From the NCBI GenBank assembly GCA_050084515.1, contig CM114271.1:27528001-27592000 (forward strand): DNA of 64,000 nucleotides, in the 5' to 3' direction. The translations under genes were made by a program, and so were the position numbers. Below are positions 3,842 through 24,551 of this stretch, piece after piece. Every line of letters begins with the position of its first letter. The first letter of the stretch is position 1. Below the pieces are notes generated by a model, which was not told the DNA's origin, did not search any database, and saw nothing but the letters and a program-made list of their open reading frames with translations. This DNA comes from Blasia pusilla. Taxonomy: Eukaryota.

Positions 3842-4028
3842 TCCTCCATCTATTTTTCCATCCCTCCATACATTATTTCTATCCATGTGCCACACTCTCC
3901 ATCCACATTCCTCCCACCTCCCACCTTCTACCTTCTATCCGTCCATCAATTCCATTTCTTCATGCTTATTCCATTCATTCATCCTATCTATTCAAGCATG
4001 TCACCCTCTAGTTGTTCATCAAGTCCTT

Positions 4029-4654
4029 TGTCATGTCTCTTAGGATAGATCGGTGAGATCTAGTAGAGCGCCTTTTTGAGTAGCGGAGGACATGCTCAGT
4101 AGGTTGAGGATGACCTGCAGAGGCCCCGGGAAACCTGCTCTCGTTTCGGCTCATTTGGAGCTATATTGAGGATCTTACTATTTTAGGTAAGTACCATTTT
4201 GAGTATGTGATCGACTTTCTATTTTTTTAAGTGGCCCTTGACCTCCTACATCAGGTCAAGAGCCAAGGAGGTGACTTGGGAGCATAGGTTACCATGGAGA
4301 GAGCTTGGGAGAGGGGAGGGGTATACCTCAAGGAGAGAGAGTTTGAGAGCTCATTCTCTCTTTGTTGAACCTCTTGGCATGAGGCGGCGGAGCTATGGTC
4401 CCTTGCCTTGTGAGTGTAACCTAAGCCTCTCATTAGGAGAGTGGGTTTGGTTTGACATGAGAGACAATGCACACCTTTGAGAGCTATGGTGTGAGATGGT
4501 GTAGAGAGAGATTGGATCTTACTTTAATTGGAGATATTTTGGTACTTCTTGTCCTGTTGTTTAGATGCCATGATTTAGCATGGGATCGTGCGTGTTTGTG
4601 TAAGTGTTTAATGACAACGATGTATATTTTGTAGCGATGTGTATGCGCACGACA
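4029..4654 (+). mobile_element. Solo LTR of the DNMT/PHD Gypsy family
   Basis: TGTCA...CACGACA termini, 4-bp TSD CCTT (4025-4028, 4655-4658), and high similarity to the LTR at 43447-44088. Confidence 0.85.
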
Positions 4655-5289
4655 CCTTCTCCATCCATTAGCCCCATCCGTAAACTCCATTCGTCCATGC
4701 ATTCCGTCCTCTATCTATCCATGAACTCAATATCCATCTATCCATATATACACCCTATCTTGGATCCATCAACTTAGTCTACCAAAATACATCTTTGTTT
4801 GGATTCAAACCCAAGGTTACAAAAAAATAGACATATCCATAAACATGCCCAATAGTTATCCCATCCGGATTTTTTCGATACTCCATAGGCCCACGCGGGC
4901 TTGGGATACGGCTTTGGTTGCACAAAAAAGGGCAAGTCCGTCCTTATGAGGGAAATGGATAGACAAGTGTGGACAAGTCCACAAACATGAGTTGCAAGAG
5001 GTTGTTGCGTTCCTCATGACCAAACGAGTGCCAAAGCGGAACATCAAAACACTAGCGGGCTCACGCTAAGATGGTTTGCGCGTTGGAGTGGTCTCAGAGA
5101 CGAGACAAGAGACGAGACGCAAGCGAGGCTTCGCATTTCATATGTTGTGGTTGCAATTGAGAAACCTAGACCAAATGCGGATCAAGACTTGAGAGGAGTC
5201 AAGTCTAGGAAGTGGGTTGCCAAAGGAAGGAATCCGGATTTGGGACGCCACTAGCGTTTGAGAGTTTCTGACTGTATTTATGGCCATAA

Positions 5290-5900
5290 ATTTTAGCTCC
5301 AAAATGCGTTTAAGACGAATAAAGATGGTTGGAAAGCTTATGGAAATCCAGTTCAAATGCACTAAAGATCTCCGCAAACGCACAAGTAGCGGCTGAGAAA
5401 CAACCCAAAAACGACTCTAAGTAGAATCGGGTTGAGGGCCACAATGAAGGGCCCGACCATCCTTTTCCAAAGGTAGGGGATGTTTGGAGATCCCCAGAAG
5501 TACTAGTAAGGGGGAAGGTATCCAAGGGTGCTTGGAACTCGAACCCCACTTTGGGCGCTACCGGGCGGCTCAAGGGCATGGAACGGATCGGGAGTTTGGA
5601 GTTGGGCTTGAAAACCTGAACCAAGTCTATTGAGGTGATTTTAGAGATCCCTCTTGGATTCCAACCCGTGACTCAATTACTTGGGTCTTGGTTAGAAACT
5701 TGCACGAGGTCCGTTGAACAGTTGGAACCGCTAGGCGCGCAGGTGCCGTTTTAGGTTCCTGGACTAACCAAAAAGTCTGTTCCAAGTCTTGAAGGACTTT
5801 CCATTTTGGGAACCTAGGAAGTAAGGAAGGTTGAGCTTGATGAGATGCCGAGTTGAGAACTGGATGGGTTGGAAAGTCGCTTGATCCAAAGCCAGACTAA
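5290..5900 (-). repeat. Inverted copy of the dispersed repeat family seen at 1860-2230 and 8640-9200
   Basis: Reverse complement shares CCCAAAGTGGGGTTCGAGTTCCAA and neighbouring motifs with the other copies. Confidence 0.55.
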
Positions 5901-6279
5901 TGTGAGTGCGTTTGGGTGCAAGTCGGGGATGAGAGCGTGTCCCACTGAACGTACGCTTCCACAATACTAGAGATTGACATTCAAGGAGAGTAGGCGCACG
6001 ACAGAGGTGGGGCCCATACTTATAGTTCATGATGGAAGGTAGGGCAAGGGCGAGTGGGGAAAAAAGGAGGAAGGAAGTGGGGGGAATGAGAAAGAAGGGG
6101 AAGGTGAGGCCACATGGATAAATCCTTCCATAGGACGGACGTAAGTCCACAGACACAAATATTTTCCATATGTAACCTTAGAAATAGGAATGGGTACGGG
6201 CTCTGATTAAGGGAATAACAACAATCAAATATGTGTTTGGGCTTTGAGCCCTTGCTTGGCATCTATCAAGCTCATGCGT

Positions 6280-7551
6280 TGTCGTGTCGAGAGCCTTTCT
6301 TCGAGCAAGGACGGGCCTTCTAGCTGCGGTAGATGCGGTCGATGCAAGGTGAACTCTCTAAGAAGTTCTCCTTTTTCAATACAAAATTATGATGTACACT
6401 CTCCATTCTCTCACGACACGTATCACAAATGGAAGTGCCGAGGCGATCACTTCTTCGTAACATCGGACCCCGAAATTCCTAAGTATAAAATTCCTATAAA
6501 CTATTTTACGCTTGTACACGAGGAAGATAGCACAACTAGTGTTAAACCCTACTTGAGCAGGCCTATTGACATCCATGGATCGCTATATAAGGACGTACAA
6601 AGTACAATCCCATGTCCTTCCATATGTGACGATAGGAAGAATCACCGGAGTTGGAGATTGCATGACCTGGTTCATGAACGCCTCCCCAAAGTGATAAACT
6701 AAATATCGAGTGAACCAGTGTCTATCTACAAAGAGTACCTTAACATGGTATGGATTGAGGAAAGGAAAGTCGGGCACAACTCGTGCTCCACCCCTATCCA
6801 TGCTTGATAGACATTCTTTACTCTCCTCAAGAATGGGTTTTGGCGGAATTATTCTCCCAAGAGGGGTAATCCACTCTCATTGGGGAAGTAACAAGCCAAA
6901 AAATTCACTATTTTAGTATGACTAAACTCCTCTAAGATGACAAACCTCTCATCTCCACACACACACACCACACTCTAGAAACCTCTCGAAGAATAGACCA
7001 TGATCAAGTTACTCATCCAAGAGGGGTGATCCACTCTCATTGGAAGAGCAAGCAATCCCAAAGCCATACATTCAAGAGAGACACGAGAGACTCAAGATGT
7101 GGAATAGAAGGTGATGAACCCTTGAAGGTCCCTCCTCTTTATATACTCACAAGGGATCCACAAGAGTACGAAATAGAGCTTATCTTATCTTGTGCCATAT
7201 GACTTCCTCTCAAGGCTTAGCCAATCACATTTTGACACAAGTAGATTTCCTCTTATTTCTTCCAAAATATCCTCTTTTACCCACTTGATATTTTCCAAAT
7301 TACCCCAACTAACCTAGCCACCAACCAAGACTACTTTTGTTTTTCATTAAAGCAACTACTTTACTTTTAAAAAGTCATCTTTTATTTATTACCTCTTTTT
7401 TAAAAGTTGGGCCCGCATAAAAGAGGCACCATAAAGAGGTTTAAACATAAGAATTTCCTTTTTGTAAGCCAATTTACTTAATACTAATGAAACTCTATCT
7501 AACACTTAATGACGAAGGAATTTACATACTTGTTGATTTTACTATACGACA
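6280..7551 (-). mobile_element. 1.27-kb solo LTR, copy A
   Basis: TGTCGT...ACGACA inverted termini, 4-bp TSD GCGT (6276-6279, 7552-7555), near-identical copy at 47634-48906, and TATA-like TATATAAAG on the minus strand near 7140. Confidence 0.85.
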
Positions 7552-7599
7552 GCGTTGCCCGCGGCCACGCAAGTAAAAGGCATGTAAAAGTCACGCACT

Positions 7600-8077
7600 A
7601 TAGGCAAGGCTTATAGAGTGTGCGCTCTATGCAAGCATGTTGTAGGCTTAGGTGGGCTAAGCTTGCAACATATTCTTGTGATTGGAGTAGGAAAATTTCT
7701 CTTGCAAAGTTTCTTGCTAGAGATAGATCAATGTCCAACTCAGAAATCCACTTACTAAGCCAAAGGCCCCATGAAAGATTTGCATTTGAGACATCCTCAT
7801 GCCTAGAGCTTGTCAATGTGTTAGGAATCGTAGTCTCCTTGTCAGACTCTTGGTCATGTAATGGTTTGTCTCTTGGTTTTTATTGCTTGAGTGAGCATTT
7901 GGGAAAAGATCCATCTACCATTTCCATCCTAAAGCCTTCGTCCGTTTAAATCCTTTCCTCATCTCTTGCATCCCTCACCAAGTGTCTAGGCCTCAAATGA
8001 ACCTTGTCTTCTCCCAAACATCTAGTCAATACCTACGATCATGAGTTCAGGCTCACCAAAGATTGGCTCTAATACCA
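7600..8077 (-). mobile_element. Degenerate LTR-retrotransposon 5' internal fragment
   Basis: Minus strand TGGTATTAGAGC (iMet PBS-like) at about 8066-8077, followed by decayed coding-like sequence. Confidence 0.35.
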
Positions 8078-8095
8078 CATGTTGTGCACTTACTC

Positions 8096-8494
8096 TAGGG
8101 TTGCAAAAAAAAAAGTTTGTGTCTGCAGACTTATGTCAGTCCCTAAGACAAACATCTATGTGCGGGCCCCAGTACCCGCGGCTTGCACTAGTTTTGTGGC
8201 CCACAACCAAACCCGCACATGGCGGGATGGGCCTCCATTGGGGGGGCTCATGCTTGCGCATGGTGGGCTTGCATGCCATGCATGAGCCAGAGCCCACCCA
8301 ATGGGGGCCCATCCCACCATGTGTGCACCTTGCACCGGCCTGGCTTCATGCCACAAAACCGATGCGATAGCGATCAACCCGGATGCCCATTACTGGCTCG
8401 ACGGGCTCTAGGAGCGGGCTCATATGCGGGCCACTGGAACCCATGCAAAATTTCCGTCTCATGGGCGGACTTGTCTTTTTTCTGTGCAACCTTG
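8096..8494. mobile_element. hAT-type MITE (same TIR family as 3627-3841)
   Basis: TAGGGTTGCA...TGCAACCTTG termini. Flanks ACTTACTC/ACCTTCTC are a 6/8 match to an 8-bp TSD. Confidence 0.7.
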
Positions 8495-8639: not shown

Positions 8640-9200
8640 AAGGCATTCTTCAAGCTCATAATCTAGATGGGCCACATGATCCAACCCATCACTACCCAAT
8701 ATAGGAAAGTCATTCAAGACGCAAGACAAACTTCCTTGATGGTCTGGTGATTAGAAATGACGCTAGTACATGTGGAAATCCCAACTACCCAATGGACCTC
8801 GAACAAGTATCTAATCGAGACTCAATATCCAAGTTACGGATCAAGGTTTAAGGTTGGTGTCCATAATTGGTCCAGTTGGACTTGGTTTGATGTCAAACCC
8901 CAATGCAAGCCTCTCAATCCATCTCGTGCCCTTTGTTCACCACCATGGTTCCCAAGGTGGGGTTTGGGTTCCAAACGCTCTTTGAGACCCTCCCCCTTCA
9001 AGATAGTTCTAGAGAATCCCATCCCCTCCCTACATCTAGCGAAGTCCTCTTGGGCCGCTCCTTGTGGCCCTCAACCTATCATTTTGATAGTTTGGGGATG
9101 GTTTCTAGATCTATACTCATGCATTTTTCCATATTTTTGTGCGTTGGAATTAGCTTCTCACAAGCTTTCTAACACCACTTTAATTATTCATCCCAAATGC
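8640..9200 (+). repeat. Dispersed repeat family copy (LTR-like)
   Basis: Similar to 1860-2230, 5290-5900 (inverted) and 36140-36400. Confidence 0.6.
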
Positions 9201-9309
9201 ATCTTGGCAAACACTAGAGAGGATGGCACATGTTTTGGAATTTTCAAACACAATGTTTTTTGAAATATGGGATGAATCCCAACCAAGTGCAAGCTTCCTC
9301 CATCTCATA

Positions 9310-10244
9310 TCTATATTATTATTAGAGGATGTACTTTCACTCTTTCAAATATTTAAGTGCATGCCACATGTTATATACTATGACCTCTAAGATAAGGGTT
9401 CAAAGTTTGCTAACTCGTTTGAAAAAGTGAGTGATCTTCAAGCGTGAATCAAATTTGGTCTTGGAAGTAGTGGGAGAAGTAATGGCTATGTTTTGGAATC
9501 TTGTGTGAAGCACTAGCTCTTTTTCCACTCATACTATTCCCATTATTTTCTTTCATTTCAAAATAATTATCAATTTTAAACGCTCTTCTTTTTTTTCCTC
9601 AAAATTTCTCCATCATTCTCCTTTTATTGATTTTCCTTGATTTTCCTCTATCAAGGAAGGTTTCCCATTTGGATTTATTTTAACCTCCTCAATCAAAATC
9701 CAATAATCCTTCTTTCCCCTTTTCCAATATGTTTCATATAATCATACAATTAGTAAGTAAAAACTTAATGTAATTTACATGAAAGAATGAGTCATTGCTT
9801 CCTTAGCTAACAACGAATAACTGCAAGGGGCCATTTCTAGATGCCAACATCCGTGCTATTAGTGTATAACCATGTCTCGTAGTGCTTGCATGAGATGTCA
9901 ACACTTGACTATTTTGACTAATACGAGCTTCCCACCTGTCCCACATACCTTAAGATCACTCAAGTGTTGGTTTTGTGCTGCGATCAAGTTAATAGGTCCC
10001 ATTTTAGAATAATGATAGGTAATTTGAATTTCCCATCATTACTTGTGCATCATATGATGATATGAGGCATATGCTAATATCATAAGGAGAAGGACATAAA
10101 TGCTACATATATATTATTATTTGAGGGGCATTTCTCAAATGGTGACACGTGACGCACAAACACATATACATATAAACTTATAGAGCCGGGCCATACATAT
10201 GTAAAGGACCATGCACCGCACAGTCCCTCACGGGCCCTAACTAG
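9310..10244 (+). mobile_element. Putative non-autonomous Helitron
   Basis: Starts A|TCTATATTATTATT, the same 5' end as the array at 10512-11304. Ends with a degenerate GC-rich hairpin and CTAG|T at 10241-10244. Confidence 0.5.
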
Positions 10245-10511
10245 TCTTTGCTATTGATAGTCAACTCATGGTAGATTCATAATTTTTTGGAGCCTCCATG
10301 TCTACTAGAAATGTAACTTCTACATGGAATCAAGCTTTTGCAACATGTATGGTCTTGTACTAGTCAATCAATCATGTGGAATCCAACTCTAACAAAGGGC
10401 TCAAGGACACAAATTATCGTATTAGTATTTTGCGCAAGTTTACTTTTCTAGTTTTTTTCCCTTAGGCCACCTCCACCCGCTACATATAGCAAGCCATGTC
10501 CACTTGGTGGA

Positions 10512-11304
10512 CTAGTGGGCAGTCCGTGCCATACACCGTAGTGAAAAGACTAATCGTATTGCAATTTTTTTCTTGTTGCCTATAAAATGGAAAATAATTT
10601 TGTAGCTGCCATTACAAGAAGAAATATTTTCTTGCTGCTCAATTGCCAAATGTAAAGTACAAAGGTGTTTGCAAATTAAGAAAGTACTCTCTCATATTAA
10701 TATAGACTAGTAAGGTGCCCGTGCCATGTACGGGAAATTAAAAAAAGTGATTGAAGAGCTAGTGTAAAGCACGTGAAGGGAAGAGATTAATGATGTTGCA
10801 CATAAATTCATTTTTTTCTTGCTGTCCAATTGTCACGTGTCAAGCAGAGAGGTGTTTGAAAATCAAGAAGGCACTCTCCCATAATAATATAGATAAGGTG
10901 CCCGTGCGATGCACGAGAAAAAAAAGAGTGTTTGAAAAGCTAGTATATAGCCCGTGAAGGGAAGAGATTGATGATGCCGCACATAAATTCAAATTTTTTT
11001 TGGCTGCCCGTAGCATGTGAAAATTTTTCTTTCTGGCCAATTACCATGTGTCAAGTAGAGAGGTGTCTGCAAATCAAGAAGGGACTCTCCCATAATAATA
11101 TAGACTAGTAAGGTGCGCGTGCGATGCACGGGAAATAAAAAAGTGTGTGAAGAGTTAGTATATAGCCCATGAAGGGAAGAGATTAATTATACTACACATA
11201 AACTCAAATTTTTTTTTCCTCCCCATAACATGTGAAACATTTTCTTGTTGCCCGATTGCCACAACGTTTACAAATCAAGAATCACTCTCCCATAATAATA
11301 AAGA
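10512..11304 (-). mobile_element. Head-to-tail tandem array of four ~200-bp mini-Helitrons
   Basis: On the minus strand each unit runs 5'-TCT(A/T)TATTA..ATG(G/A)GAGAG...CCCGTGC-ATC-GCACGGG-like hairpin...CTAG-3'. CTAG|TC junctions at 10706/10707 and 11104/11105. The array sits in an A|T target. Confidence 0.8.
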
Positions 11305-11386
11305 TGTGGGGGAGGCCGAAGGGGTTCAAATGAGAGGAGAGGAGACCTAAAAGAAGGACTTGCTCAACTTGTTGCACATCAAAGTC
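11305..11386 (-). pseudogene. LecRK pseudogene, kinase subdomain XI fragment
   Basis: Reads DFDVQQVEQVLLLGLLSSHLNPFGLPH, matching the RLK 'L.LGLLCSHP.P..RP' motif. Continuous with 15365-15735 once the Copia is removed. Confidence 0.75.
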
Positions 11387-14300
11387 TGTTAAAAAAAGGA
11401 TGACCCTATAAACCCATAAGGTATGCACCGGGTTTAGGGCCACTCCAACTATATTAGCATTACTTAGAACCATAAGTCTAGTATATTAGCTAGACTCATT
11501 TCTTAGTGTTAAGGAGACTCTTTTCTCTCCTAAAGTGTGTCTTCTCTTTCTCTTTCATGTAGTACACTGATATGCTAGAGTTAACCTTGTTAATGAGATT
11601 TGGGACTTTGCATTTTTCTACTTTGGATTTTTATCATGGTATCAGAGCTTGGCTTAATGTGAGACTTGGCAATTGCTATGCTATGGTTTAATGTCAGACT
11701 TGGTAATTGCTATGTTGCAAAGTTCTTTCCATTGATTTATGTTTCTTTAGTTTTCCTATTTTTTCTTCTAATCTGAAAATTAGTCTTGCACTTCATATAG
11801 ACTTTTCAGTAGTAAAAGCTCATTGTCTTCACTTTTATTTCATTTCCATAGCAATGGCTTCTTCATCGTCCGATCATCGCCTTGAACGGCTTGATGAAAG
11901 AAACTGTAGCACGTGGTCCTTTTCCATGATGTATTTATTGAGTACTCAAAAACTCTTTAAATATGTAGAAGGAAAGATCGAGAGACCAGGTGAGGAAAAT
12001 GCTCGTGCGAGAGACAAATGGGATGAGGAAGAGATGGAAGCGAAGGGGATCGAAGCAAGATCCATAATTTGGATGAAAATGCATCCATCCAATTACAAGG
12101 CTATGATGGAGGTATGAGAAAATCACGAGGATTAGATGAGATGAATCTCACATTTTTGGGTCCTAAGGGAGAACGCACTCCCGTGATTGTGAAGAATGTG
12201 CATTGGGTGCCCAATGCATTAGATACGCTTCTATCGCTGCAACCTTATGCAAAAGGGGCTGCAAATTCAACTTGGATGGAGATAGGGTAGATTGGTTCCT
12301 ACCGTCTGGAGATCTACTTGCAAATAGGAAGCTTGAGGGAAAGGCTTATCTCATGTGTTGTGAAATTGAGGAGACCACAATTGTGGCGAAAGCTTCTCTT
12401 GCAGGTTGATCACTTCTAGAAAAATTGTTGGCAACAAGTTAAGGAGCTAATGCCAACATGTGAGGCAGGTATCGTTGGTAAGGCACACGGTCAGCCTTTT
12501 CCAGAGATGCATAAGCATGCCAAGGGAATTCTAGATGTGGTCATTTCTGATCTAGGATATTTTGATATGCCTAGCTTTGGAGGTGCTAAATGGATGGTTG
12601 TGTGGACAGATGAGTGTTCGTGATACACTAGCTTAGCTTTCCTCATGACTAAAGATAAAACTCATGAAGCATACAGGATTTGGGAGAGTGAAGTACAAAG
12701 AAAGATGGAGCGGAAGGTGGAAACTTTCCTGACTGACCAAGGCACGTAGTTCTTAAACCAGAAGCTTGGTTCATACTTCAAGGCGCATGGAATCCAAAAT
12801 ATGGTAACAACTTCATACACACATGAGGTTTTTGGGATGACACAATGAATGATGCGCACTATCTTTGAAGGAGTTTGCACACTCTTTGCAAGAGCAAAGT
12901 TAGATCGTTGCTATTGGGCCTATGCAGAAAAAATTGTTGTGTGGACTCTTAATCGGCCACCACATGCACAACTTGGTAGTAAGAAACCCTATGAAGCACT
13001 TTATAATGAGAAACCTTCTATTGCCCATGCTCATCTATTTGGTTGTTCTGCTTGGTATCATATACCAAAGGAAATCTGGAAAAAGCTTGATGAAAAGGCA
13101 AGGAAAGGTATTTTTGTTGGCTATTCTGAGATTGCAAACGGGTATGAGATTTATCTACCAGAGAGTAAGGAGATAATTCTTAGTCGTGATGTCATATTTG
13201 ATGAAAAGGAGGTAACAATTGTAACCTCTGACCTAGGTCCTTCAAAGAAAAATGACAACCAAGATGTTGACCTTCATGTTGTGAAGTTTGGTTCTTCCAA
13301 TCCGACAGAAGTCCCAAACACCATAGAAGTTGGTGATACAAATATTCTTGAAGAAAAGAGGAAATTGGCGGGGGCACAAAAATGGAAGGAGATGTTCATC
13401 TAGAACAACATGTGAAATCTCATGCAAGGAGTGGAATTGATCCTATCAACATTATCGATGGACCACGCAGGCGCCAAACACCTTGGAGAGAAGATGATGA
13501 CTTTGTACGAGAAGATTTTCTTTTGGAGATCATTGACTCAACAAATCTTCCTCCACACTCTCAACCCGATCCCAAGACCTTGGGAGAAGCTTTGAACTCT
13601 CCCTTTGCAAATGAATGGAAAATGGCCATGCAAGAGGAGTTGCAATCTCTAAAAGAGCATGGCACATGGGAGATCTTCCAGTTGGAAGAAAACCCATAGA
13701 TTCAAAATGGGTATTTCGCACCAAGGTTGCATCAAATGGATTAGTTGTGAGGTTCAAAGCATGGTTGGTTGCAAAAGGCTACTCCGAAGTCAAAGGTATT
13801 GAATACCATGAGACTTTTGCACATGTGGCACGTCTTGCAACAATTCGTGTGTTTTCTGCTCTTGCAGCAACTCTAGATTGGAGTGTTCAACAACTTGATG
13901 TTGTTTCAGCTTATTTGAATGGAAAACTTAAGGAGGAGAATATCTTCATGAGAGTACTTGAAGGTTTGGATACTCCTCCATAGCACAAAGGCAAGGTTGT
14001 GCGACTGCTAAAGACTTTATATGGTTTGAAGCAAGCTGTACGTGGGTGGAATGAGAACTTGGATTGCTCCTTGTTGGCACTTGGTTGGCAGTGCTCTAAT
14101 TCTGACCCATGTCTCTACACAATGAAAATGGATCAGTTGGTCCTTGCTCTTATTGTGTATGTTGACGATGTGTTGATTGGAGGGAAATTTTTTGAGATTT
14201 TTGTGGCTCAAAAGGAAGATTTGCAGAGGTGCTACAAGATGAAAGACCTTGGTAAGTTGAATCATTTTTTCTCGGAGCAAAGGAGATGGAGCCATTAGTT

Positions 14301-15364
14301 TGAGCCAAACAAAGTATATCTCTCAAAAGCTTGAAGAATTCGGGATGAAGGAGGCAAAAGTTGTTGCAACACCGATGGAGCCCGGGAATTTAACCATTCA
14401 TGAGAATGATATGCGGCTCGACTCAAAAGGGGTCAAATTGTATCAACAAGCATTGGGATCTTTGTTGTATTTGGCAAACGCAACTAGGTATAATATCTCT
14501 TTTTCTTGCCACCACTTTACGCAATATATGTCTCGACCTTGCACATCACATTGGCAAGGAGTGAAACGAGTGTTTTGATACTTGCAAGGGACTAAGAATT
14601 TGGTATTGCGGTATGGCGACAAACATACAAGCTTGCAACTTGTAGGATACAACGATGCAGATTGGGGAGGTTGCAAGGAGACGCGATGTTCAGTGGGAGG
14701 TTTTTTCTTTCACACTAGGCGGACCAGCAGTCTCTTGATCAAGCAAGAAACAGACAATAGTCTCTCTCTCTCATCAACAGAAGCAGAATATGTTGCCGTC
14801 ACTATTGCAGCAAAAGAGGCTCTATGGCTTCAAAAGGCAATGGGAGATTATGGGATCGAGCAACCATATCCAATCCTCATTCACGAGGATAGTCAGTTGT
14901 GTATTGCGATTGCAAAGAATCCTGCTCATCATGGTCGCACCAAACATTTTCACATTCAACACGTGTAAGGAAGTGCGTAGAAAAAGGAGAAGTGGAACTC
15001 AAGTATTGTCCAAGTGAGCAAATGGCGGCATATATCTTGACAAAACAACTAGCTAAAGCAAAGTTTATTGCTTGTAGAAATATGCTAGGACTAGTGAAAG
15101 TCTAATAAAGATGAGTTGCCTTTCCACGGAGGAGGAGTGTTAAAAATAGGATGACCTTATAAACCCATAAAGTATGCACCGTATTTAGGGCCACTCCAAC
15201 TATATTAGCGTCACTAACTATATTAACGTCATTTAGAACCATAAGTCTAGTAGATTAGCTAAATTCATTTCTTAAGGAGAGTGTGTGTTCTCTTTCATAT
15301 ATGCTAGAGTTAACTTTGTTCATGAGATTTGGGATTTTGCATTTCTTTACTTTGGATTTTATCG
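11387..15364 (+). mobile_element. Ty1/Copia LTR retrotransposon, internally deleted and decayed
   Basis: LTRs 11387-11636 and 15138-15364, PBS TGGTATCAGAGC 11637-11648, PPT GGAGGAGGAG before 15138, TSD AAGTC (11382-11386, 15365-15369). Domain order INT-RT-RH. Confidence 0.95.
11854..15105 (+). pseudogene. Copia gag-pol remnant
   Basis: Gag N-term (LDERNCSTWSFSM), integrase (KKLDEKARKGIFVGY), RT (KTLYGLKQA, YVDD), RNase H (DADWGG, SSTEAEYVA, HGRTKH). Many stops and frameshifts; most of gag is deleted. Confidence 0.9.
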
Positions 15365-15735
15365 AAGTCGCCACGTCTACGACGCTCAACAGGTTGTGTT
15401 CACTGAGCTCTCGCCACACCCGATCGATCGGGAGAATTGCGTCTTCGGGCAGGCTGAGATCTAACACCTTCCTGCCTCCATAGCAACAGTCCCTGACGCG
15501 AGAACATCCTTGTTGTTCGTGAACTTTCTAGTGTAGGCGAAGTAACCAGGAGTTCCAACTTCTTCTTGTGCTCCATCATCCGGGCTAGTCCGAAATCCCC
15601 CGGCATGGCATTGAATTGCTGATCCAGCGTGACGTTGCTGGATTTCACGTTTCGATGAAGCACCTTCACTCGGCAACACTCGTTTAGATACTGGAGAGCT
15701 GGAGCGAACCGTTCCAACCAAGATCTCAAATCTGG
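15365..15735 (-). pseudogene. LecRK pseudogene, kinase subdomains VIa-X
   Basis: LQYLNECCRVKVLHRNVKSSNVTLDQQFNAMPGDFGLARMM and VGTPGY, with deletions and frameshifts. Confidence 0.9.
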
Positions 15736-16036
15736 CAGGAATTTGCTTAAGTGGCCCCTTGCCCTACTTATGTTGCTTAAGTGGCCCCCCTGCGAAATCT
15801 CTTGCTTGAGTGGCCCCTATGAACTGCCACGTCAGAGTTCCCACCGGTTGGTAGAAATTTTCTTCTACGTAGTTACTCTAGCCCAAATTTTTTGGATATA
15901 GGAACAATCCCGAGTTAGGGTTTGTCACTTTCGAGTTAGGACTGTTGATCATGCAAATCGTGATCAACACTCGTACTCTGGCACATGTTAATTTGTTTAC
16001 TAATCAGTGTTTACTGTTCATAAGCTTGATTAGAGA

Positions 16037-16280
16037 ATGGATGGTGTCGAGCTACCCAAACATCCTAACCTCTCGTGTATTGATGACAATTTTCCAGACT
16101 TGAGCAGACAACATTTTCCTCTGGATGACAATGGATTTTCTGGTTCTAGTCGCAAAGACCAAAATTGTGGATCTTATGAACGAAGGCCATCATCAATAGA
16201 GTCATCGGCTACTTTCGAGTTATGGCGAGCCTCCACGTCCAAGAATGATCCCTGTCTCGAAGGGTTCAGCCTGGAAGAAG
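16037..16280 (+). CDS. Putative first exon of the MULE transposase gene
   Basis: ATG at 16037, open to GAAGAAG|GTAAGA donor (phase 1), phase-compatible with the acceptor GTGCAG| upstream of the DNA-binding-domain exon at about 17781. Confidence 0.45.
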
Positions 16281-16299
16281 GTAAGATGACGCCGGGTTT

Positions 16300-17670
16300 A
16301 GTGGGCGTAAAAATAGCCGCCGAGATGGATACTCGATCCAGAAATGATGATTATTGTCGCAATAGCCGCCACCATAATCGAAATAGCCGCCGTTGTAGAT
16401 TATTCGTTTCCTGAGAGGTGATCCTACTAAGAATAGCTGGGAAAATATCCGCCGTTGTAGTTATTTTGATTTCCTGAGATCTAAGCCTCCTCACAGTATA
16501 GCCGCCGAATTAGCTGCCGTGGTAGTTTTGTAGTTATCCTGAGAGGGTCGCCTTTTGAAATTAGCCTCCGATTTTTAGCCGCCATTGTAGTATTATTGTT
16601 GTCTTGAGAGTTGAGCCTAGTCATAAGAGTGGTCGACTTAGCGGCATTTGTAATTGATTTCCTTTCTTGAGAGCTTAGCCTACTGAGAATAACCACCGAA
16701 ATAGCCGTCGTTGTTGTTGTTTTGTTTTCATGAGAGGCGAGCCAACTCAGAATAGCCTCCAAATTAGCCGCCGTTGTAATTGTTTTGTTCTCTTCAGAGG
16801 TGAGCCAACTCAGAATAGCCGCCAAATTAGCCGCCGTTGTAGTTGTTTTGATCTTTTCAGAGGTGAGCTAACTCATATTTGTCGCCGAATTAGCCGCCGT
16901 TGTAGTTGTTTTGTTGTCTTTAGAGGTGAGCTAACTCAGAATAGTCATTGAATTAGCCACCGTTGTAGATGTCTAACTTTCCCTAGAGGTGAGCCAACTC
17001 AGAATAGCCGCCGAATTAGCCGCCGTTGTAGTTGTTTTGGTTTCGGGAGAGATTGGGCTTCTCAGAATAACCACCGAAATAGCCGTTGTTGTTGTTGTTG
17101 TTGTTTTGTTTTCATGAGAGGCGAGCCAACTCAGAATAGCCACCAAATTAGCCGTTGTTGTAGTTGTTTTTGTTCTCCTGAGAGGTGAGCTAACTCAGAT
17201 TTGTCGCCGAATTAGTCGCCGTTGTAGTTGTTTTGTTCTCTTCAGAGGTGAGCTAACTCAGAATAGTCACCGAATTAGCCACCGTTGTAGATGTCTAACT
17301 TTCACTAGAGGTGAGCCGAGTCAGAATAGCCGCCGAATTAGCCGTCGTTGTAGGTGGTTTGGGTTTTGGGAGATATTGGGCTACTTCGACTAGCCTCCGA
17401 AATAGCCGCCGTTGTAGTAATTTTGTTCTCTTCAAAGGTGAGGCTACTCAGAGTATCCTCCGTTGTAGTTGTTCGTACTCCTGATAGATGAGCCTACTCA
17501 AAGCAGTTGCCGTTGCAGTAAGAGGTGATAGTACTCAGAATAGCCGCCTAAATAGCAGCCATTGCAGTTGTTTTGTACTCCTGAAAGGTCACCTACTCGA
17601 ATAGCCGCCGTTTGCGGTTGTTTTGTACTTTCGAGAGGTTAGCCTACTCACAAGAGCCGCCGTAGTGGAT
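16300..17670 (+). repeat. Tandem array, 63-bp unit, within MULE 1
   Basis: Unit consensus about AGAGGTGAGCCAACTCAGAATAGCCGCCGAATTAGCCGCCGTTGTAGTTGTTTTGTTCTCTTC. Period 63 is seen between 16797 and 16860; roughly 20 variably degenerate units. Confidence 0.9.
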
Positions 17671-17780
17671 ATTTGGATGACATAATGTAAGTCTTCATTT
17701 TGCGATTTGTATTGGCGTGGCGTAGTCATCAGCCGCTGTGAAAGTTAGATTCATTAACAACCCTGGGTCATCATGTGCAG

Positions 17781-18170
17781 TAAGGAGGCATGCCGAGCGG
17801 ATACAATTGAAGCAAGTGTTCCGCAGCTTCGATGAGTTTGAGTTTTCACTAGATTGTTGGTGCTCGCTGAATTATAGAGTGAAGCATTGCGCATGCAGCA
17901 AGAAATGGTACCGGCTTAGAATATGTAGATTTGGCGCAAAGATCAGAGGCAAAGGCCTTCCTATTTTCCATGAGGACAAACCCTCTAGCGGTTCGACGAC
18001 TTCAAGAAATGGAACGTATCCTAAGAGGGAGGATACTCTTGTGAAGAAATGTAGTTTTGTATGCCATGGTATTAACAACATGTCCGACACCGGAGGATTG
18101 GAGGAAAATATTCAGGAATATTCAACGGTTGCTAATCACAGTGGAAAGAAGTCGCATGATGTTAGGGGGA
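17781..18170 (+). pseudogene. MuDR/FAR1-type N-terminal DNA-binding domain fragment
   Basis: IQLKQVFRSFDEFEFSLDCWC...RLRICRF...KKCSF...W...NH pattern typical of the MULE WRKY-GCM1 zinc domain; one apparent frameshift near 18060. Confidence 0.6.
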
Positions 18171-18514
18171 GCACGGCGGTTAATGTCAACGAAGTTGCAT
18201 TTAATGTGTGTGGATCCTCGCTTGGAGATATTGGGGGACATAGTGAAGAATTTCAAGACCCACATATCTCCCTTTTGAAGAAGAGGGAGGAAAAACAAGG
18301 AATGGAGGAGAAATGATTAGAGGAGAGGAAAAAAGTTGAAGAAGACGGAGGAAAAACTAGGAATGGAAGAGAAATGAAGGGAGGAGAGGAAAAAAGATAC
18401 TGAAGAGGGAGGAAAAACAAGGAAGGGGAGGGAAAAATTAAGCAGGGAATGGAGGAAACATGAAGGGAGGAGAGGGAGGGTGTAGAAGAAAATAAAATGG
18501 AAGGAGAGGGAGGG

Positions 18515-19652
18515 TGTGATTAGCCGCCATCCAGAAAATAGCCGCCGGCCTGTGATTAGCCGCCGTCCAGAGAATAGGCGCCGGCCTGTGATTAGCAGCC
18601 GTCCAGAGAATAGCCAACCGCCTAGAAAATAGCCGTCGGGCCTGTGAATAGCCGCCGTCCAGAGAATAGGCGCCGGCCTGTGATTAGCAGCCGTCCAGAG
18701 AATAGCCAGCCGCCGGGCCTGTGAATAGCCGCCGTCCAGAGAATAGGCGCCGGCCTGTGATTAGCAGTCGTCCAGATAATAGCCATCCGCCTAGAAAATA
18801 GCCGCCGGGCCTGTGAATAGCCGTCGTCTAGAGAATAGCCGCCGGCCTGTGATTAGCCGCCGTCTACAAAATAGCCGCCGGCCTGTGTATAGCAGCCGCC
18901 GTCCCGACAATAGCCGCCGGCCTGTGATTAGCCGCCGGACTGTGATTAGCAGTCGGACTATGATTAGCAGCCGAACTGTGATTAGCAGCTGTCCAGAGAA
19001 TAGCCAGCCGCCTAGACAATAGCCGCCGGGCTTGTGAATAGCCGCCGTCCCGACAATAGCCGCCGGCCTGTGATTAGCCGCCGTCCAGAGATTAGCCGCC
19101 GGCCTGTGATTAGCCGCCGTCCAGAGATTAGCCGCTGGACTGTGATTAGTAGCCGTCCAGAGAATAGCCAGCCGCCTAAAAAATAGCCGCGGGGCCTGTG
19201 AATAGCCGCCGTCCCGACAATAGCCGCCGGCCTGTGACTAGCCGCCGTCCAGAGATTAGCTGCCGGACTGTGATTAGCAGCCGTCTAGAGAATAGCCAGC
19301 CGCCTAGAAAATAGCCGTCGGGCCTGTGAATAGTCGCCGTCCCGATAATAGCTGACGGACCTGTGGATAGCAGCCGTCCCGACAATAGCCGCCGGGCCTG
19401 TGAATAGCGCTTGTCCCGAGAGTAGCTGCCGGGCTTGTGAAAAACAGCCGTCCTGACAATAGCCGCCGAGCCTGTGAATAGCAGCCGTCCCGAGAATAGC
19501 CGCCGGGCCTGTGAATAGCAGTCGGACTGTGATTAGTAGCCGTCCACAGAATTGCCAGCCGCCTAGAAAATAGCCGCCGGGCCTGTGAATAGCCGACATC
19601 CCGAGAATAGCCGCCGGGCCTGTGAATAGCATCCGTCCCGACAATAGCCGCC
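18515..19652 (+). repeat. GC-rich short-unit tandem array built on TAGCCGCCG
   Basis: Dozens of GCCTGTGA(T/A)TAGCCGCCGTCC(A/C)GA(G/C)AATAGCCGCCG-like units (about 16-36 bp sub-periods), flanked by purine-rich tracts. Confidence 0.9.
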
Positions 19653-19976
19653 AGGCTTGAGTGGAGAAGGGAGGAGAGGGAGGGATGGGAGTTAAACAAA
19701 CAAAAGCCTCAGAAAGAGCGAGGTGTAGCGTTTGGTGATTTAGTTCTCGGCCTGTGATTAGCAGTTATGGAGAATAGGCGTCACTCCAAGCCTGTTTCTT
19801 CTTGAACCGGGAAGGGTTTGGTCCATTATGGTTTGTGAACTTTAATACGTCACTGAGAACATACTTTGCATTCCAACATGAACAAATATCATAATTTTGC
19901 ACACCAAGAAACAAATGGGCTACATATGACAATTCCATCTGAGTTTATAAATTTCTTTTTGCAATCTGACATTCTT

Positions 19977-21300
19977 TCATGACTTCCTCGCCAAGCTAAT
20001 ATAAAATGCTTCTTCCTCTGGGTTCCACTGGGAATCAGTACCAAGTTCTACCAAGGATATGCCAGTATTTTGCTCCTCACAATCATCAGACTCTTCATCA
20101 GATTCAGACTTCCCATAAACAAGAGAAACACTCGGAAATACTAGACTATTTGGTATGCGATTAGAGGCGCTATTACCAAGATCCATAGGAGTGGAAACAT
20201 TCTCCATGGTAGACTGCACCAAATTTCCCCCTGATACAACACTACCCTTTACATTAAGTTCTTCAGTAGTATCTGCTCTAGTCTCTTGAGAATATAAACT
20301 TTCCACTCTTGAGTAAAGCCTACTCTGATATCCATACTCTGCTACAAACCGACTTGCATCGGGACGTCTTCGTGTTGGGTCATCAGATATAGATCTCCCT
20401 ACAAGTTGGTCCGCTTTCAGCACTTGGCCCGTTTTCCGATTATGCCCTTGAAGTGCATAATGGCCACAACGTCTTTCAAAAGTGCGGGCAACCCTTGTCG
20501 TTGGTGCCCTACGCCCGTTACGAATACCTAACGGACCTCGCTGGGGGATATACTCATGCTGGCCACTCCCAACATCATCTTCATTCACAAACTCTTCATG
20601 TACAGGATAAGAAATCTCTTCACCACCTCCTTGTCCTCTTCGCATCTCGCCACCTCTTCCACCAAGAATGCGCACATAACGATGTCTACCACGCCGAACT
20701 GCAGGAAGGGGAGGTCGGCAATCCCAAGATGGTATAAGTTCATCACTCTTCACAACTGGTATACTGCTTTTGTAGATCTTCCTTATGAAGTCATTGGTCC
20801 AGATAGGATCAACAAGTTTCTGTGAGTCCATTCCAGTAATGACATCCCAAGCCATTACATGCGTACATGGCCAACAAGTATCTTGGAACTCTAGGCATGA
20901 ACAACTGCACTCAGGGTGCAAGCGGACATGAAATTGGTGTGCACTACTTGTGGAAGTGACAAGTGCATTTGTTGCTTTTGAGGCTAGTACATCAAAACTT
21001 TGACAGTTGGCTTCATTCTCTCGATAACGAATAAGTGCATAAGTAGTCAGTTTGTTGGAGAACTTCTCTGGGTGACATGCCTCTACTTTTCTTGCTGCAT
21101 AAGTTTTCATCATGTAATTCCATAACTCACAAGCAATGACAAGTGGAGGTCCCTCCCTGATAGGTTTGATGGCGGAATTTATGACCTCTACAAGATTTGA
21201 ACTCACTTTGCCATAGCGTGGCAAAGGGAATGCACACCTCGCAAACTTCTCTGGTCCTATCTCTCGTATGTACGAGGCTACATTAGCTATTCGTTGAATA
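19977..21300 (-). pseudogene. MULE transposase C-terminal half (catalytic E region, SWIM zinc finger, degenerate zinc knuckle)
   Basis: RYGKVSSNLVEVINSAIK, CSCSCLEFQDTCWPCTHV (SWIM), RRGR, RRCGHYALQGHNRKT. The upstream DD part of the catalytic domain is absent. Confidence 0.85.
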
Positions 21301-21321
21301 TGACTCCTCCAATCCAAATGA

Positions 21322-22909
21322 CACTCACACCAACAGCATGATTCACCTTCACCTGTACATGGAGTGAAGAATGGAGAAAGCAATGGGAATGAGCAACGGA
21401 AGGATGGTATTTATGGCTTGGATTGGCAAGAATTTGGGAACTTGCCTGAATGGAACACTCAGAAGGTAGGAGGTTGGGAAGTTCCCAATGTTTCTCAGTT
21501 CGGGCCTTCACAACACCATAGGGAGTCTCTAGGCACAACAAGGAAAGACACGGCAGATGCACCTATGAAGATCACTACAGAGGGCCCTCATGGGAACATG
21601 GCAAGCGGCACACCACGTGCTCACCCTACAACAACGACCAAGGCCCAACTTTTCGTGGAGCCTATGGTGATTACCCGAGGCTCTCAAACCATGGACAAGT
21701 TTCTTGTGAACAGAATGAGTCAAACTGACCATATGCTCACAGTGGATCAACAATTGCAAACAGATAGTATCCCTGAGGTGCATATGGTTAACCGCTTATG
21801 CGAGACTGAGAGCGTGTACCATGTGAACAACTATGTGCAAACTGAGGACTCCACATGGTGGATGAATTATATGCGGTCCAAAGCGCTAGCAATGGTTCCA
21901 ACACGCGGTGCTCCACAACCCACACCATCAAGTGAAGATGGTATACTCCCTAATGTTGGGGGAGCTGAAGGTTTGGACGGAAAAGAAGATGGGCTCAAAT
22001 CACAGAAGGTATTATGCCAATCTTCAATTGCCCATCTTCCTTTAGATGGCCTCTATTCTCCAATCGTTCTTTACAAATTGCAGTAAGTTCTTATGGATTT
22101 TTGGCATTCTCAGTGGAGGAGTCAACGTATAGGTGAAGGTTTACTCTATATTTGTTGGATTGTCCCAAAACCCTATCCAAAAATCCTTAGTAATCACAAC
22201 CGGCGCCTATTCACTATGGACGGCTATTCACACAGCCTTAGTGATCACAACCGGCGGGTAAACATAGCCGGCGCTTATTCATAGTGGGCGGCTATGCACA
22301 TCCAATGCCAATTTCTAGGCGGCGGCTAATCACAATCAAAGGCTTTGTGCTAAGCACAAAGTGGGGCTAATCACACACGACGACTTTTTTCCATTGTAGG
22401 TTATTTCATGTACACATTCCGTTTGTCTTTGGATGTAGGAACCAACGGAAGAAGTACCAGAGGAAGACCCGAGTGTGCCACAAGGAGGGTTTTTGATTGA
22501 TGAGAGAATCATACAATTGTGGATTAACCATTTGGGGATGCCCGCGGAAGATGTGGTGCATTTGGAATGTTGGGAGGACAAAATTCATCTCACTGAACGA
22601 ACCACAGCTAGAGTAGACAAGTATGTTGAAGTCCTGGAGCTAAGGCACGCAGCTCTTCTCGCTGACAGAGGAGATCTCATTACAAAGTTAAGAGTGACCG
22701 ACTATGACAACAAAGATGGGTGGGAAGAAGCCTTGCGTAGAGTGACAACCTTGCAAGATTCGGCAGCAAGGAATTCACAGTTTTTTTGTGATCTCTTGAG
22801 TAGGCTAGGTGTGTCATCAGACGGCTTGGACGAGGCATCCTGTTTCTCCAGGGCTCTAGTGGCTATTGTTGACTTGCAGCGGTTGGATTCTTCAGGTCAA
22901 AGCATGTAA
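21322..22909 (+). CDS. MULE accessory gene of unknown function (predicted exons ~21322-22008 and 22439-22909; N-terminus probably missing)
   Basis: Two long ORFs join in frame via AAG|GT at 22009 and TAG| at 22438 (phase 0). The last exon is homologous to 51540-51920 in the second MULE. Confidence 0.55.
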
Positions 22910-23290
22910 TAAATCTTTGTAATGTTCCTTTTTGTTTTATGGTGAAACGATGATCACATCCATGTTGTATAATGTATGTCAAACGCTGAAATTTGTGCAC
23001 TTCCACCCCAAACCCTACAACCTGCGGCTAAGACGCTCATGAGCCCTGGGGCTGCGGCTACAACCTGTGGCTAACTCCAAACCCTAAACCCTAAACCTGC
23101 GGCTAAAACCTGCGGTTAAATTGGTCCATCCTCTCCCCCTTGGCTGAAACTTCATCAGCTCACTGCAATGCCATGACACACTGGAGCTGCGGCTAAATCC
23201 AAACTTCCACCCTAAACCTGCGGCTAAAACCTGCGGCTAAATTGGTCCCTCCTCTCCCCCTTGGCTGAAACTTCAGAACTTCTGCGGTTA
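22190..23290 (-). repeat. Reverse-oriented TAGCCGC motif clusters in the right half of MULE 1
   Basis: Many (C)GGCGGCTA/GCGGCTA copies at 22190-22370 (predicted intron) and 23020-23290 (subterminal). A telobox-like AAACCCTAAACCCTAAA lies near 23080. Confidence 0.75.
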
Positions 23291-23464
23291 AGTGCAAAGG
23301 TCTACTACTATAAAAATGGTGCTAGAACAATTACCGGACTTCCCGGTAGCTCATATCCCATGAACACGGTGTTATAGGTAAGAGCCCCACTCAAGCAAGA
23401 GATTTCGTAGGGGGGCCACTTAAGCAACATAAGTAGGGCAGGGGGCCACTTAAGCAAATACCTG

Positions 23465-24551
23465 CAAATCTGGAGCCCCGGGGTAGTGCGGACTCACGAG
23501 CCGGGCAGGAATTCGTACACTAGCAGAAACTCCTGTCCTTGAATGCACCAAGCCAATAAGCGAACGATGTCCCGATGTCGGATCTGGCTGAAAATTCCCA
23601 CCTCGGCCAGAAACTCGTTCTCGCCCTGTTTCGAGCCATCGCTCACTTTCTTCACCGCCACCAGCCGCCCCGAACCGCCAATCACGCCGCGGTATCCGTT
23701 GCCGACCTTTGCACGTTCGTGGAAATTATTGGTGGCCGCACTGAGCTCTTCATAAGTGAAGTTCCTTGTCTAACTTGAGTTCCAAATGCGACTGCTGCTG
23801 CGGATCTCGTCTGCTGAAGCTCCATTTCTTCGCTCGCTCGTTCGCTGCGAAAAAGAACGAGTCCAGAGACGATAGCTAGGAATGCAATGCCGGCGACCAC
23901 GCCTACTACAGTAGCGCGCTGACAGTCGCACTCGATGCAGACGAGGTGGTCGGCAGGGATGGCGAGGAAGAGGGAGATGGCGATATCCAGAGTGCGCGGG
24001 TAGAAGGGAGAGAACTTGTGAGTTTCCAATCGCAAACTGTGTAGAAGTTGTGACACTCACAATATCCAAAGGAGTTCGATCCCGAGAGTCCCACCCCGAC
24101 GAGATTCTCGTCGATCACCTCGGAAAGAGGGTCTGGAATTCTTAGTGCTGACCCTTACCTCCAGAATAGACACAAACGCGTTGTAATCGATCGAAGCGAA
24201 CAAACGGTTGCCAGAGACGCTGCCTCTATTCTGAATCTGAAACTTGTGCTGAAAGAGGCAGCCTGTTGAGTCGATACGTCGAGAACCTGTACAGGCTTGC
24301 TGTAAAGAGCCACTCCAGCAGTATCTTTGCAGAACCCCCCATGGCTCATCTCTATTGTGTGGATCCTGCGTGAGCTTCAACTCTCCTTCAAATTTAGTGG
24401 TCGCATTTCCCAGGCATGCGAGATTCCCACGCTCTCCGCATGAGAACCGAGAGTTGATATCAAGGGCGAACTCAGCTAACACACAAACTTGTCTTTTCTC
24501 TCCCACCCCGAACAGAGCCATGGCCAACACTAAGCCCACCCAAACGCTCAT
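23465..24551 (-). pseudogene. L-type lectin receptor-like kinase (LecRK) pseudogene, 5' part
   Basis: Signal peptide MSVWVGLVLAMALF; legume-lectin motifs LGNA..LKLT, AGVALYSKPV, ASFSTSFRFRI; TM VVGVVAGIAFLAIVSGLVLF; kinase FTYEELSAATNNF, VAVKKVS, EFLAEV, RHRDIVRLLAWC, LLVYEF. Multiple deletions and frameshifts. Confidence 0.92.

Follow-up and report, generated by a model that had tools for sequence, protein, structure and literature searches.

A two-gene Mutator family of the liverwort Blasia pusilla with an amplified DNA motif and an accessory domain of predicted VANC/PMD fold

Introduction

Why does a transposon multiply one short DNA word throughout its non-coding parts, and does it encode a protein that would recognize it? 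The question is raised by a stretch of 64,000 nucleotides (nt) from contig CM114271.1 of the liverwort Blasia pusilla (hereafter the window, whose positions are used below unless another locus is named), in which a Mutator-like element (MULE) spanning 15736-23464 (7.7 kb) carries the word TAGCCGC in several repeat arrays. The original prediction, made from this stretch, was a motif/protein pair analogous to the VANDAL/VANC system, possibly of independent origin. Extending the analysis to the rest of the genome, we found that the window element is a defunct member of a Mutator family with two genes, both of them broken in this copy, and that the second, accessory gene of the family encodes a domain with a predicted VANC/PMD fold.

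VANC is the best-understood sequence-specific anti-silencing system. In the pairs VANDAL21 (Hiun)/VANC21 and VANDAL6/VANC6, the motif is described as multiplied by tandem repeats in introns, with repeats gained and lost between relatives (PMC5735166). VANC has been described as dicot-specific and as probably captured from MAIN-like genes (PMC13547354). According to published work, the PMD proteins MAIN, MAIL1 and MAIL2 and the MULE-borne PMD-C have the same fold as VANC and act via DNA motifs, one of them palindromic (PMC5418596; bioRxiv 10.1101/2024.09.27.615353), and the PMD surveys covered angiosperms (PMC5418596).

The Mutator Family and Its Two Genes

The left end of the element is present at least 40 times in the genome (40 of 138 candidates scored). 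At the 20 best non-self left-end matches we took 19 kb, and within this distance the right terminal inverted repeat (TIR) was found in 16, most of them with a matching or near-matching 9-bp target-site duplication (TSD). Complete sister elements measure 13.8-18.7 kb; 15 of the 16 complete copies were used for a family consensus, S17 being omitted for a second TIR match inside it. Copies lie 0.9-2.7% from the consensus in exons, and most have stops or frameshifts. Gene 1 encodes a MULE transposase in three exons, recognized by PF10551 in sister S07 at E 6.9e-13, and Mutator/MULE membership follows from this DDE transposase, present in the sister and deleted in the window copy, together with the TIRs and the 9-bp TSD. 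The accessory gene lies 6.7 kb downstream of gene 1 on the same strand and has exons A, B, C and D. Its predicted protein of about 880 amino acids (aa), for which the B-C boundary is uncertain, begins with an N-terminal domain of about 220 aa, continues with a long stretch of low complexity and ends in a conserved helical part.

One copy, L062, has stop-free accessory exons A, C and D. Three RNA runs (6-12% of reads used) aligned to it gave a sense depth of about 1-6x over exon D and the last part of exon C and of 0-0.03x inside the last intron, and in one run 2 reads crossed the predicted C-D junction, their letters agreeing with a related subfamily. Antisense reads occurred too, and the reads were mostly 90-99% alike to L062, so that they derive from other copies: the family is weakly transcribed, with low-level spliced sense transcripts, which is not evidence for the L062 copy itself. 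In the same locus, pieces of L062:5990-7030 (about 10300-11700 in the family consensus) match an abundant spliced transcript with loose ends and a GT-AG intron (25-48 reads per run); they are probably captured host gene fragments, in the style of Pack-MULEs.

The Amplified Motif and Its Conservation

The exact word TAGCCGCC occurs 43 times in the window (41 on the + strand, 2 on the - strand), always between 16314 and 22328, against 0.60 expected and a maximum of 3 in 100 shuffles; of the core TAGCCGC the element holds 51 copies, against 6 in the other 56,271 bases. The repeat units that carry it are unrelated to one another (a 63-bp unit repeated 16.9 times at 16379-17452, an 18/36-bp array, an intron of the accessory gene and right subterminal repeats), as the original prediction had proposed, and its placement of the motif in non-coding and intronic parts is also borne out: all 51 copies in the element are non-coding, given a transposase intron 1 at 16281-17780, and in the consensus 105 of 106 lie outside the exons, which make up 5829 of 16608 bases. 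The subterminal repeats at 23020-23290 had been counted among the carriers; they hold 6 copies of the variant TAGCCGCA and no exact TAGCCGCC. Across the nine regions of the family that were compared, the shared word is A[A/T]TAGCCGC[C/A]G.

In intact copies the motif lies on the + strand in transposase intron 1, on the - strand from intron 2 onward, and in palindromic form mid-element. The arrangement proposed earlier, + in the left half and - in the right, is what the window displays, but its second array lies on the + strand only through an inversion (18275-21313) private to this copy, and a mirror-symmetric subterminal design was rejected as an inversion artefact. The palindrome with a 5-nt spacer has 92 exact sites genome-wide against none for the reversed control. 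Such pairs are found upstream of the accessory gene at 8900-9700 and 11200-11300 of the family consensus (e.g., L062:7700-8050), in a fixed 25-nt unit, which suggests a dimeric binder and autoregulation.

Genome-wide, AWTAGCCGCMG has 2012 sites against 167 for reversed controls, and 95 of the first 100 sites listed are clustered at family loci. To follow the motif over longer distances, we compared 10 loci with a diverged exon A and counted sites in the 7 with both genes, excluding D02, D08 and D10, which gave no transposase match. These 7 subfamily elements hold 139 motif sites against 0.4-0.9 expected each; only 5 of the 139 lie in coding-matched DNA, which represents 33% of the length, and D10, the most decayed locus, retains 1 site. 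Between subfamilies the accessory domain differs by a dN of 0.14-0.28 and a pS of 0.74-0.81, synonymous sites being saturated, and the non-coding DNA is mostly unalignable, with the motif still present. Even the repeat unit of transposase intron 1 varies, being a 63-bp array, a longer exon-end-containing unit repeated four times or twice, or one inverted pair according to the subfamily, and arrays differ in length among copies. A 16-mer present three times in the TIR is also retained across subfamilies. Because the motif persists in unalignable introns although synonymous sites are saturated, we conclude from these alignments that it is under selection; by the same comparison, the accessory domain is under purifying selection. 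Lack of the motif in sister elements would have spoken against the original prediction, and it is conserved in them as well as in the subfamilies.

Predicted Fold of the Accessory Domain

Homologs that helped to model the domain came from a second, older MULE family of the same genome (L066-L079, L082-L088), whose transposase is about 30% identical to that of the window family. Here a homologous accessory domain, 23-43% identical, was found in 4 of 7 loci, on the opposite strand (convergent), with hidden Markov model E values of 7e-27 to 1e-12. This family has only 0-5 scattered TAGCCGC per 20 kb and a weak excess of ATGCGG/TCCGCA (59 vs 25-28) in non-independent decayed copies, CCGC being common with the window motif.

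With the 25-row alignment built by adding these homologs, the best AlphaFold model of the N-terminal domain reached a pLDDT of 75 and a pTM of 0.78, the other four models reaching 57-65. Foldseek placed the VANC21-DNA structure 9LNJ at rank 1 with a TMq of 0.47, the other listed rows being at or below 0.18. A Foldseek-independent search ranked 9LNK first of 48,161 chains (Z 7.5, root-mean-square deviation 4.5, 201 of 223 residues aligned; next Z 3.6), and a second look against VANC21 gave a Z of 7.7, with 201-205 of 223 residues aligned over both. A viral fold library gave no match (TMq at most 0.17). The assignment takes its weight from the coverage, from the gap to rank 2 and from the naming of VANC21 as the target before the search, neither score being decisive alone; on these grounds, it is probable that the modelled domain has the VANC21/PMD fold. 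The VANC-like protein of the original prediction gains support in this way from a domain that is deleted from the window copy: the domain probably shares the VANC/PMD fold and would not be an unrelated invention. No solved PMD structure surfaced in the structure searches, so the domain may be closer to either PMD or VANC. A shared fold by itself shows no function.

Sequence searches gave few leads. The DUF1985/DUF287 and PMD (PF10536) profiles did not match the accessory protein, and scans of the Blasia genome with PF20167, PF09331 and PF10536 gave nothing, although the controls matched nowhere either. Three phmmer matches among 1.84 billion sequences were judged spurious, being repetitive or unrelated proteins. 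With ESM features, the DUF1985, PMD, Transposase_32 and ATHILA clusters scored 0.80-0.83, below the 0.9 line, and these results from a single source are taken as leads only; the PMD cluster scored 0.82, with 20% of its members annotated.

Comparison with Known Systems

Like VANDAL21/VANC21 (PDB 9LNJ, 9LNK) and VANDAL6/VANC6, the Blasia family combines a MULE transposase with a separate accessory gene, and one short motif, in the same orientation locally, is repeated in tandem in introns, in intergenic DNA and in terminal non-coding DNA, where repeats are gained and lost between relatives. As described for VANDAL21 (PMC5735166), the same intron holds different repeat units in different subfamilies, and the accessory domain model matches VANC21 best. 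There are also differences. The 79-nt TIRs are intact here whereas those of VANDALs are described as degenerate (PMC10398659); there is no DUF1985/DUF287 match, identity to VANC21 is 7-10%, and the domain is shorter, with 223 aa against residues 289-584 in VANC21; the motif is GC-rich, has a palindromic form and stays constant among subfamilies; and the host is a liverwort, not a eudicot. With its intact TIRs and no DUF1985 match, the element is therefore likened to VANDAL/VANC in layout and predicted fold, and not classed as a VANDAL.

The comparison with PMD is similarly mixed. PMD occurs on MULEs, and in Blasia one copy of the domain is a candidate for domestication; however, there is no PF10536 match, and the PMDs described are from angiosperms and, on MULEs, fused to the transposase, while the accessory protein stands alone here. 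With Spm TnpA, MuDR MURB and the AtMu1 transposase, the family would share an element-encoded factor (predicted here) for repeated cis sites, but those factors are described as acting mainly at the termini (bioRxiv 10.64898/2026.08.24.746577), whereas the sites here are mostly internal and the fold matches VANC21. In the literature searched, which excluded most subscription papers, we found no bryophyte MULE described with an accessory gene of VANC fold.

A Role of the Motif/Protein Pair against Silencing and Its Alternatives

The explanation to which we lean, with moderate confidence, is that the VANC/PMD-fold accessory protein and its cognate motif act against the silencing of family copies. 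The accessory protein would bind A[A/T]TAGCCGC[C/A]G, a site that the element would multiply through tandem duplications in its introns and in its intergenic and subterminal DNA. Once bound, the protein would relieve the silencing that the host imposes on cognate copies by DNA methylation and/or H3K27me3, so that the transposase could be expressed; the transposase itself would work elsewhere, on the 16-mers of the TIRs.

Several results weigh against this explanation. As regards the fold, the N-terminal domain has no sequence homolog in Pfam (up to E 10), in a 5.8-billion-sequence library or among PDB sequences; an earlier 9-row alignment gave an unusable model (pLDDT 36); the Foldseek E of 0.68 for VANC21, at 7-10% identity, is not significant alone; and a best Z of 7-8 is common, according to the tool's own warning. 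As regards specificity, the motif is unchanged among subfamilies at about 65% domain identity, unlike VANC21 vs VANC6, and the second family has no clear motif arrays and at most a weak (A/T)CCGCA enrichment. The expected co-variation of motif and reading frame is thus seen only as presence or absence between families, which cannot separate accessory from transposase binding, as the second family differs in both proteins. In addition, the motif contains a GCC box, and transposases alone are reported to bind and activate cognate elements (bioRxiv 10.64898/2026.08.24.746577). Finally, CGs decay no less at the motifs, where 30 of 1299 (2.31%) show rare transitions among copies against 109 of 4005 (2.7%) far from them (p=0.48).

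This last result bears on the CG richness of the arrays, which had been proposed as a sign of protection. Since motif CGs decay like the others (the far ones divide into 90 of 3324 in exons and 19 of 681 in non-coding DNA, with 0.27-0.37% at A/T sites), inserted copies would be methylated at the motif as elsewhere, and CG richness is no such sign. It is mostly the motif itself: the observed/expected (o/e) CpG ratio of array 1 drops from 0.95 to 0.49 with the motif masked, compared with 0.40-0.84 for element exons and 0.23-0.86 for 2-kb bins in the rest of the window. Protection confined to cells that express the accessory protein may still be compatible with this decay, and the ratio in consensus non-coding DNA, 0.62 near and 0.29 far from motifs, is a weak hint confounded by repeats. 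In the family alignment, CWG mutates at about 4% against about 2.7% for CG, about 2% for CCG and 0.3% for A/T, and this faster CWG mutation implies strong CHG methylation of family copies.

Another role for the same binding would be transposition itself, with the accessory protein bound to the motif as a TnpA/MURB-like scaffold or as a partner of the transposase. Motifs are also present in the subterminal repeats, a MURA-MURB interaction has been reported (PMC12973397), and motif CGs bear no protection footprint; yet most sites are intronic or intergenic and kilobases away from the ends, and the closest fold is that of an anti-silencing protein. We regard this role as rather unlikely. We hold to be just as unlikely that the transposase itself binds the motif at internal and subterminal sites, possibly activating the element as AtMu1 does. 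The AtMu1 transposase is reported to bind cognate motifs and cause hypomethylation, but its peaks are at the TIRs (bioRxiv 10.64898/2026.08.24.746577), whereas in this family the TIR lacks the motif and contains three copies of a 16-mer of its own, the first TAGCCGC lying 587 nt into the element, and the seeming mirror orientation was caused by the private inversion. On the other hand, the transposase, 58-78% identical between subfamilies, equals the motif in its conservation, and both proteins differ in the second family.

Marginally less probable still is an amplified host transcription-factor site serving stress- or germline-linked expression, with the accessory gene doing something else. 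AGCCGCC, included in TAGCCGCC, is the GCC box, a site of AP2/ERF factors. ERFs would need its last C, though, and this letter is A in 91% of the subterminal sites, 30% of the palindrome sites and 49% in subfamily D02-D05, whereas the upstream A-W-T is conserved. The strict 5-nt-spaced palindromes and the intronic placement fit a dedicated binder; a pure GCC box was rejected. Neutral minisatellite expansion in a young element would agree with the small exon distances, the varying array lengths and a CG richness that follows from youth and the motif, but it is very improbable and was rejected, the same word occurring in unrelated units and the subfamily motif counts at saturated synonymous divergence largely refuting it.

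Anatomy of the Window Copy

The window copy corresponds to 1-2513 of the consensus, then 6865-4018 inverted, then 14295-16608. Comparison of its ends shows a 9-bp TSD, CAAATCTGG at 15727-15735 (+), with the identical 9-mer at 23465-23473 (+). The TIRs are 79 nt long and 96% complementary; the left one (15736-15813, +) contains the TTGCTTAAGTGGCCCC-like 16-mer three times, and the right one lies at 23387-23464 (-). The predicted transposase exon 1 (16037-16280, +) joins exon 2 in frame, with a LEEG|GTAA donor homologous in four subfamily copies. The predicted intron 1 between them (+) contains the 63-bp array, with 50-bp units and 15 TAGCCGC on the + strand. Only the 5' part of exon 2 remains (17781-18270, +); the next ~1.5 kb, where the family has the MULE (DDE) domain and intron 2, is deleted.

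The inverted segment that follows (18275-21313, -) equals 4018-6865 of the family consensus, and its tested junction occurs once in the genome. It contains the intergenic array 2 (18515-19656, 18/36-bp units, 28 TAGCCGC, on the + strand here and on the - strand in intact copies) and the displaced transposase exon 3 (19977-21313, -), with a SWIM-like C-x-C-x-C...H pattern and a weak PF04434 match (E 0.03) in a sister. Adjoining array 2 is a CT/GA-rich 61-bp array (18275-18513; 6700-8200 in the family consensus). As GA repeats are described as Polycomb response elements in Arabidopsis (bioRxiv 10.1101/2024.09.27.615353), the motif arrays may flank a silencing-attracting GA tract.

Of the accessory gene, the 3' part of exon C is left (21308-22008, +), about 7.4 kb upstream, with the predicted VANC-fold exon A and the palindromic motif array, being deleted. 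The last intron (22009-22438, +) holds clustered motifs on the - strand, 2 of them exact and several degenerate, and the 2 RNA reads mentioned above span the homologous junction on L062; a motif-bearing intron had been foreseen at 22190-22370, and its predicted extent is wider. Exon D (22439-22909, +) encodes the conserved helical C-terminal domain, 42-88% identical across subfamilies, and is followed by 3' non-coding DNA and subterminal repeats (22910-23386, -) with the 6 TAGCCGCA on the - strand. The MULE with its accessory gene is thus not the intact unit first supposed: the copy lacks the DDE core and intron 2 of the transposase as well as the palindromic array and the initial exons of the accessory gene, and its array 2 is flipped. 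Rfam gave no match over the element. The insertion splits a receptor-kinase-like gene (15400-15735 and 23465-23770, -), both halves of which match Pkinase; its frame is broken across the empty site, which makes it a pseudogene. A flanking Lhca3 gene matches PDB 9LUT best (437 bits; next 408, the following matches being from mosses), a structure associated with Marchantia, in keeping with a liverwort host.

Related Loci in the Genome

Two further loci were noted. An intact frame of 1182 codons at L080:4628-8173 (+) contains the same N-terminal domain, 30% identical to that of the window family, with a GC content of 0.56, a CpG o/e of 1.13 (0.53-0.57 in transposon copies) and no transposase match within the 20 kb examined; judged by its sequence, it is a candidate domesticated host gene, parallel to MAIN/MAIL. 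From L082:8300 to L083:9900 lies an unrelated two-gene element with divergent genes, a weak SWIM match (E 0.005), accessory frames without Pfam match and dense non-coding arrays of the palindrome GCAACCCGTCGGA..TCCGACGGGTTGC, which is by its arrays a second motif-array transposon in this genome.

Significance

The VANC type of self-protection has so far been described only in flowering plants, and the predicted fold suggests one in a liverwort. A VANC-fold gene with the matching cis layout would imply either that it arose before bryophytes and vascular plants separated or that one fold was recruited more than once. More tentatively, since two deeply diverged liverwort MULE families have a stand-alone gene for the domain, one with an amplified, partly palindromic motif, and a candidate domesticated copy exists, it is possible, if still doubtful, that VANC/PMD-fold modules are an old land-plant transposon module and not a eudicot capture from MAIN, domesticated by the host and possibly directed against Polycomb; the proposed host-to-transposon direction of origin would then be reversed. 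In Marchantia, PRC2 is reported to repress Mutator elements (10.1101/2022.10.24.513474), and whether transposon-borne PMD-fold proteins oppose Polycomb has been raised as a question (bioRxiv 10.1101/2024.09.27.615353). Since the domain can be named and an 11-bp candidate site is at hand, together with L062 as an intact copy of the accessory gene, this question becomes testable in Marchantia, and the pair, if it acts as proposed, would provide a new specificity for targeted epigenome editing.

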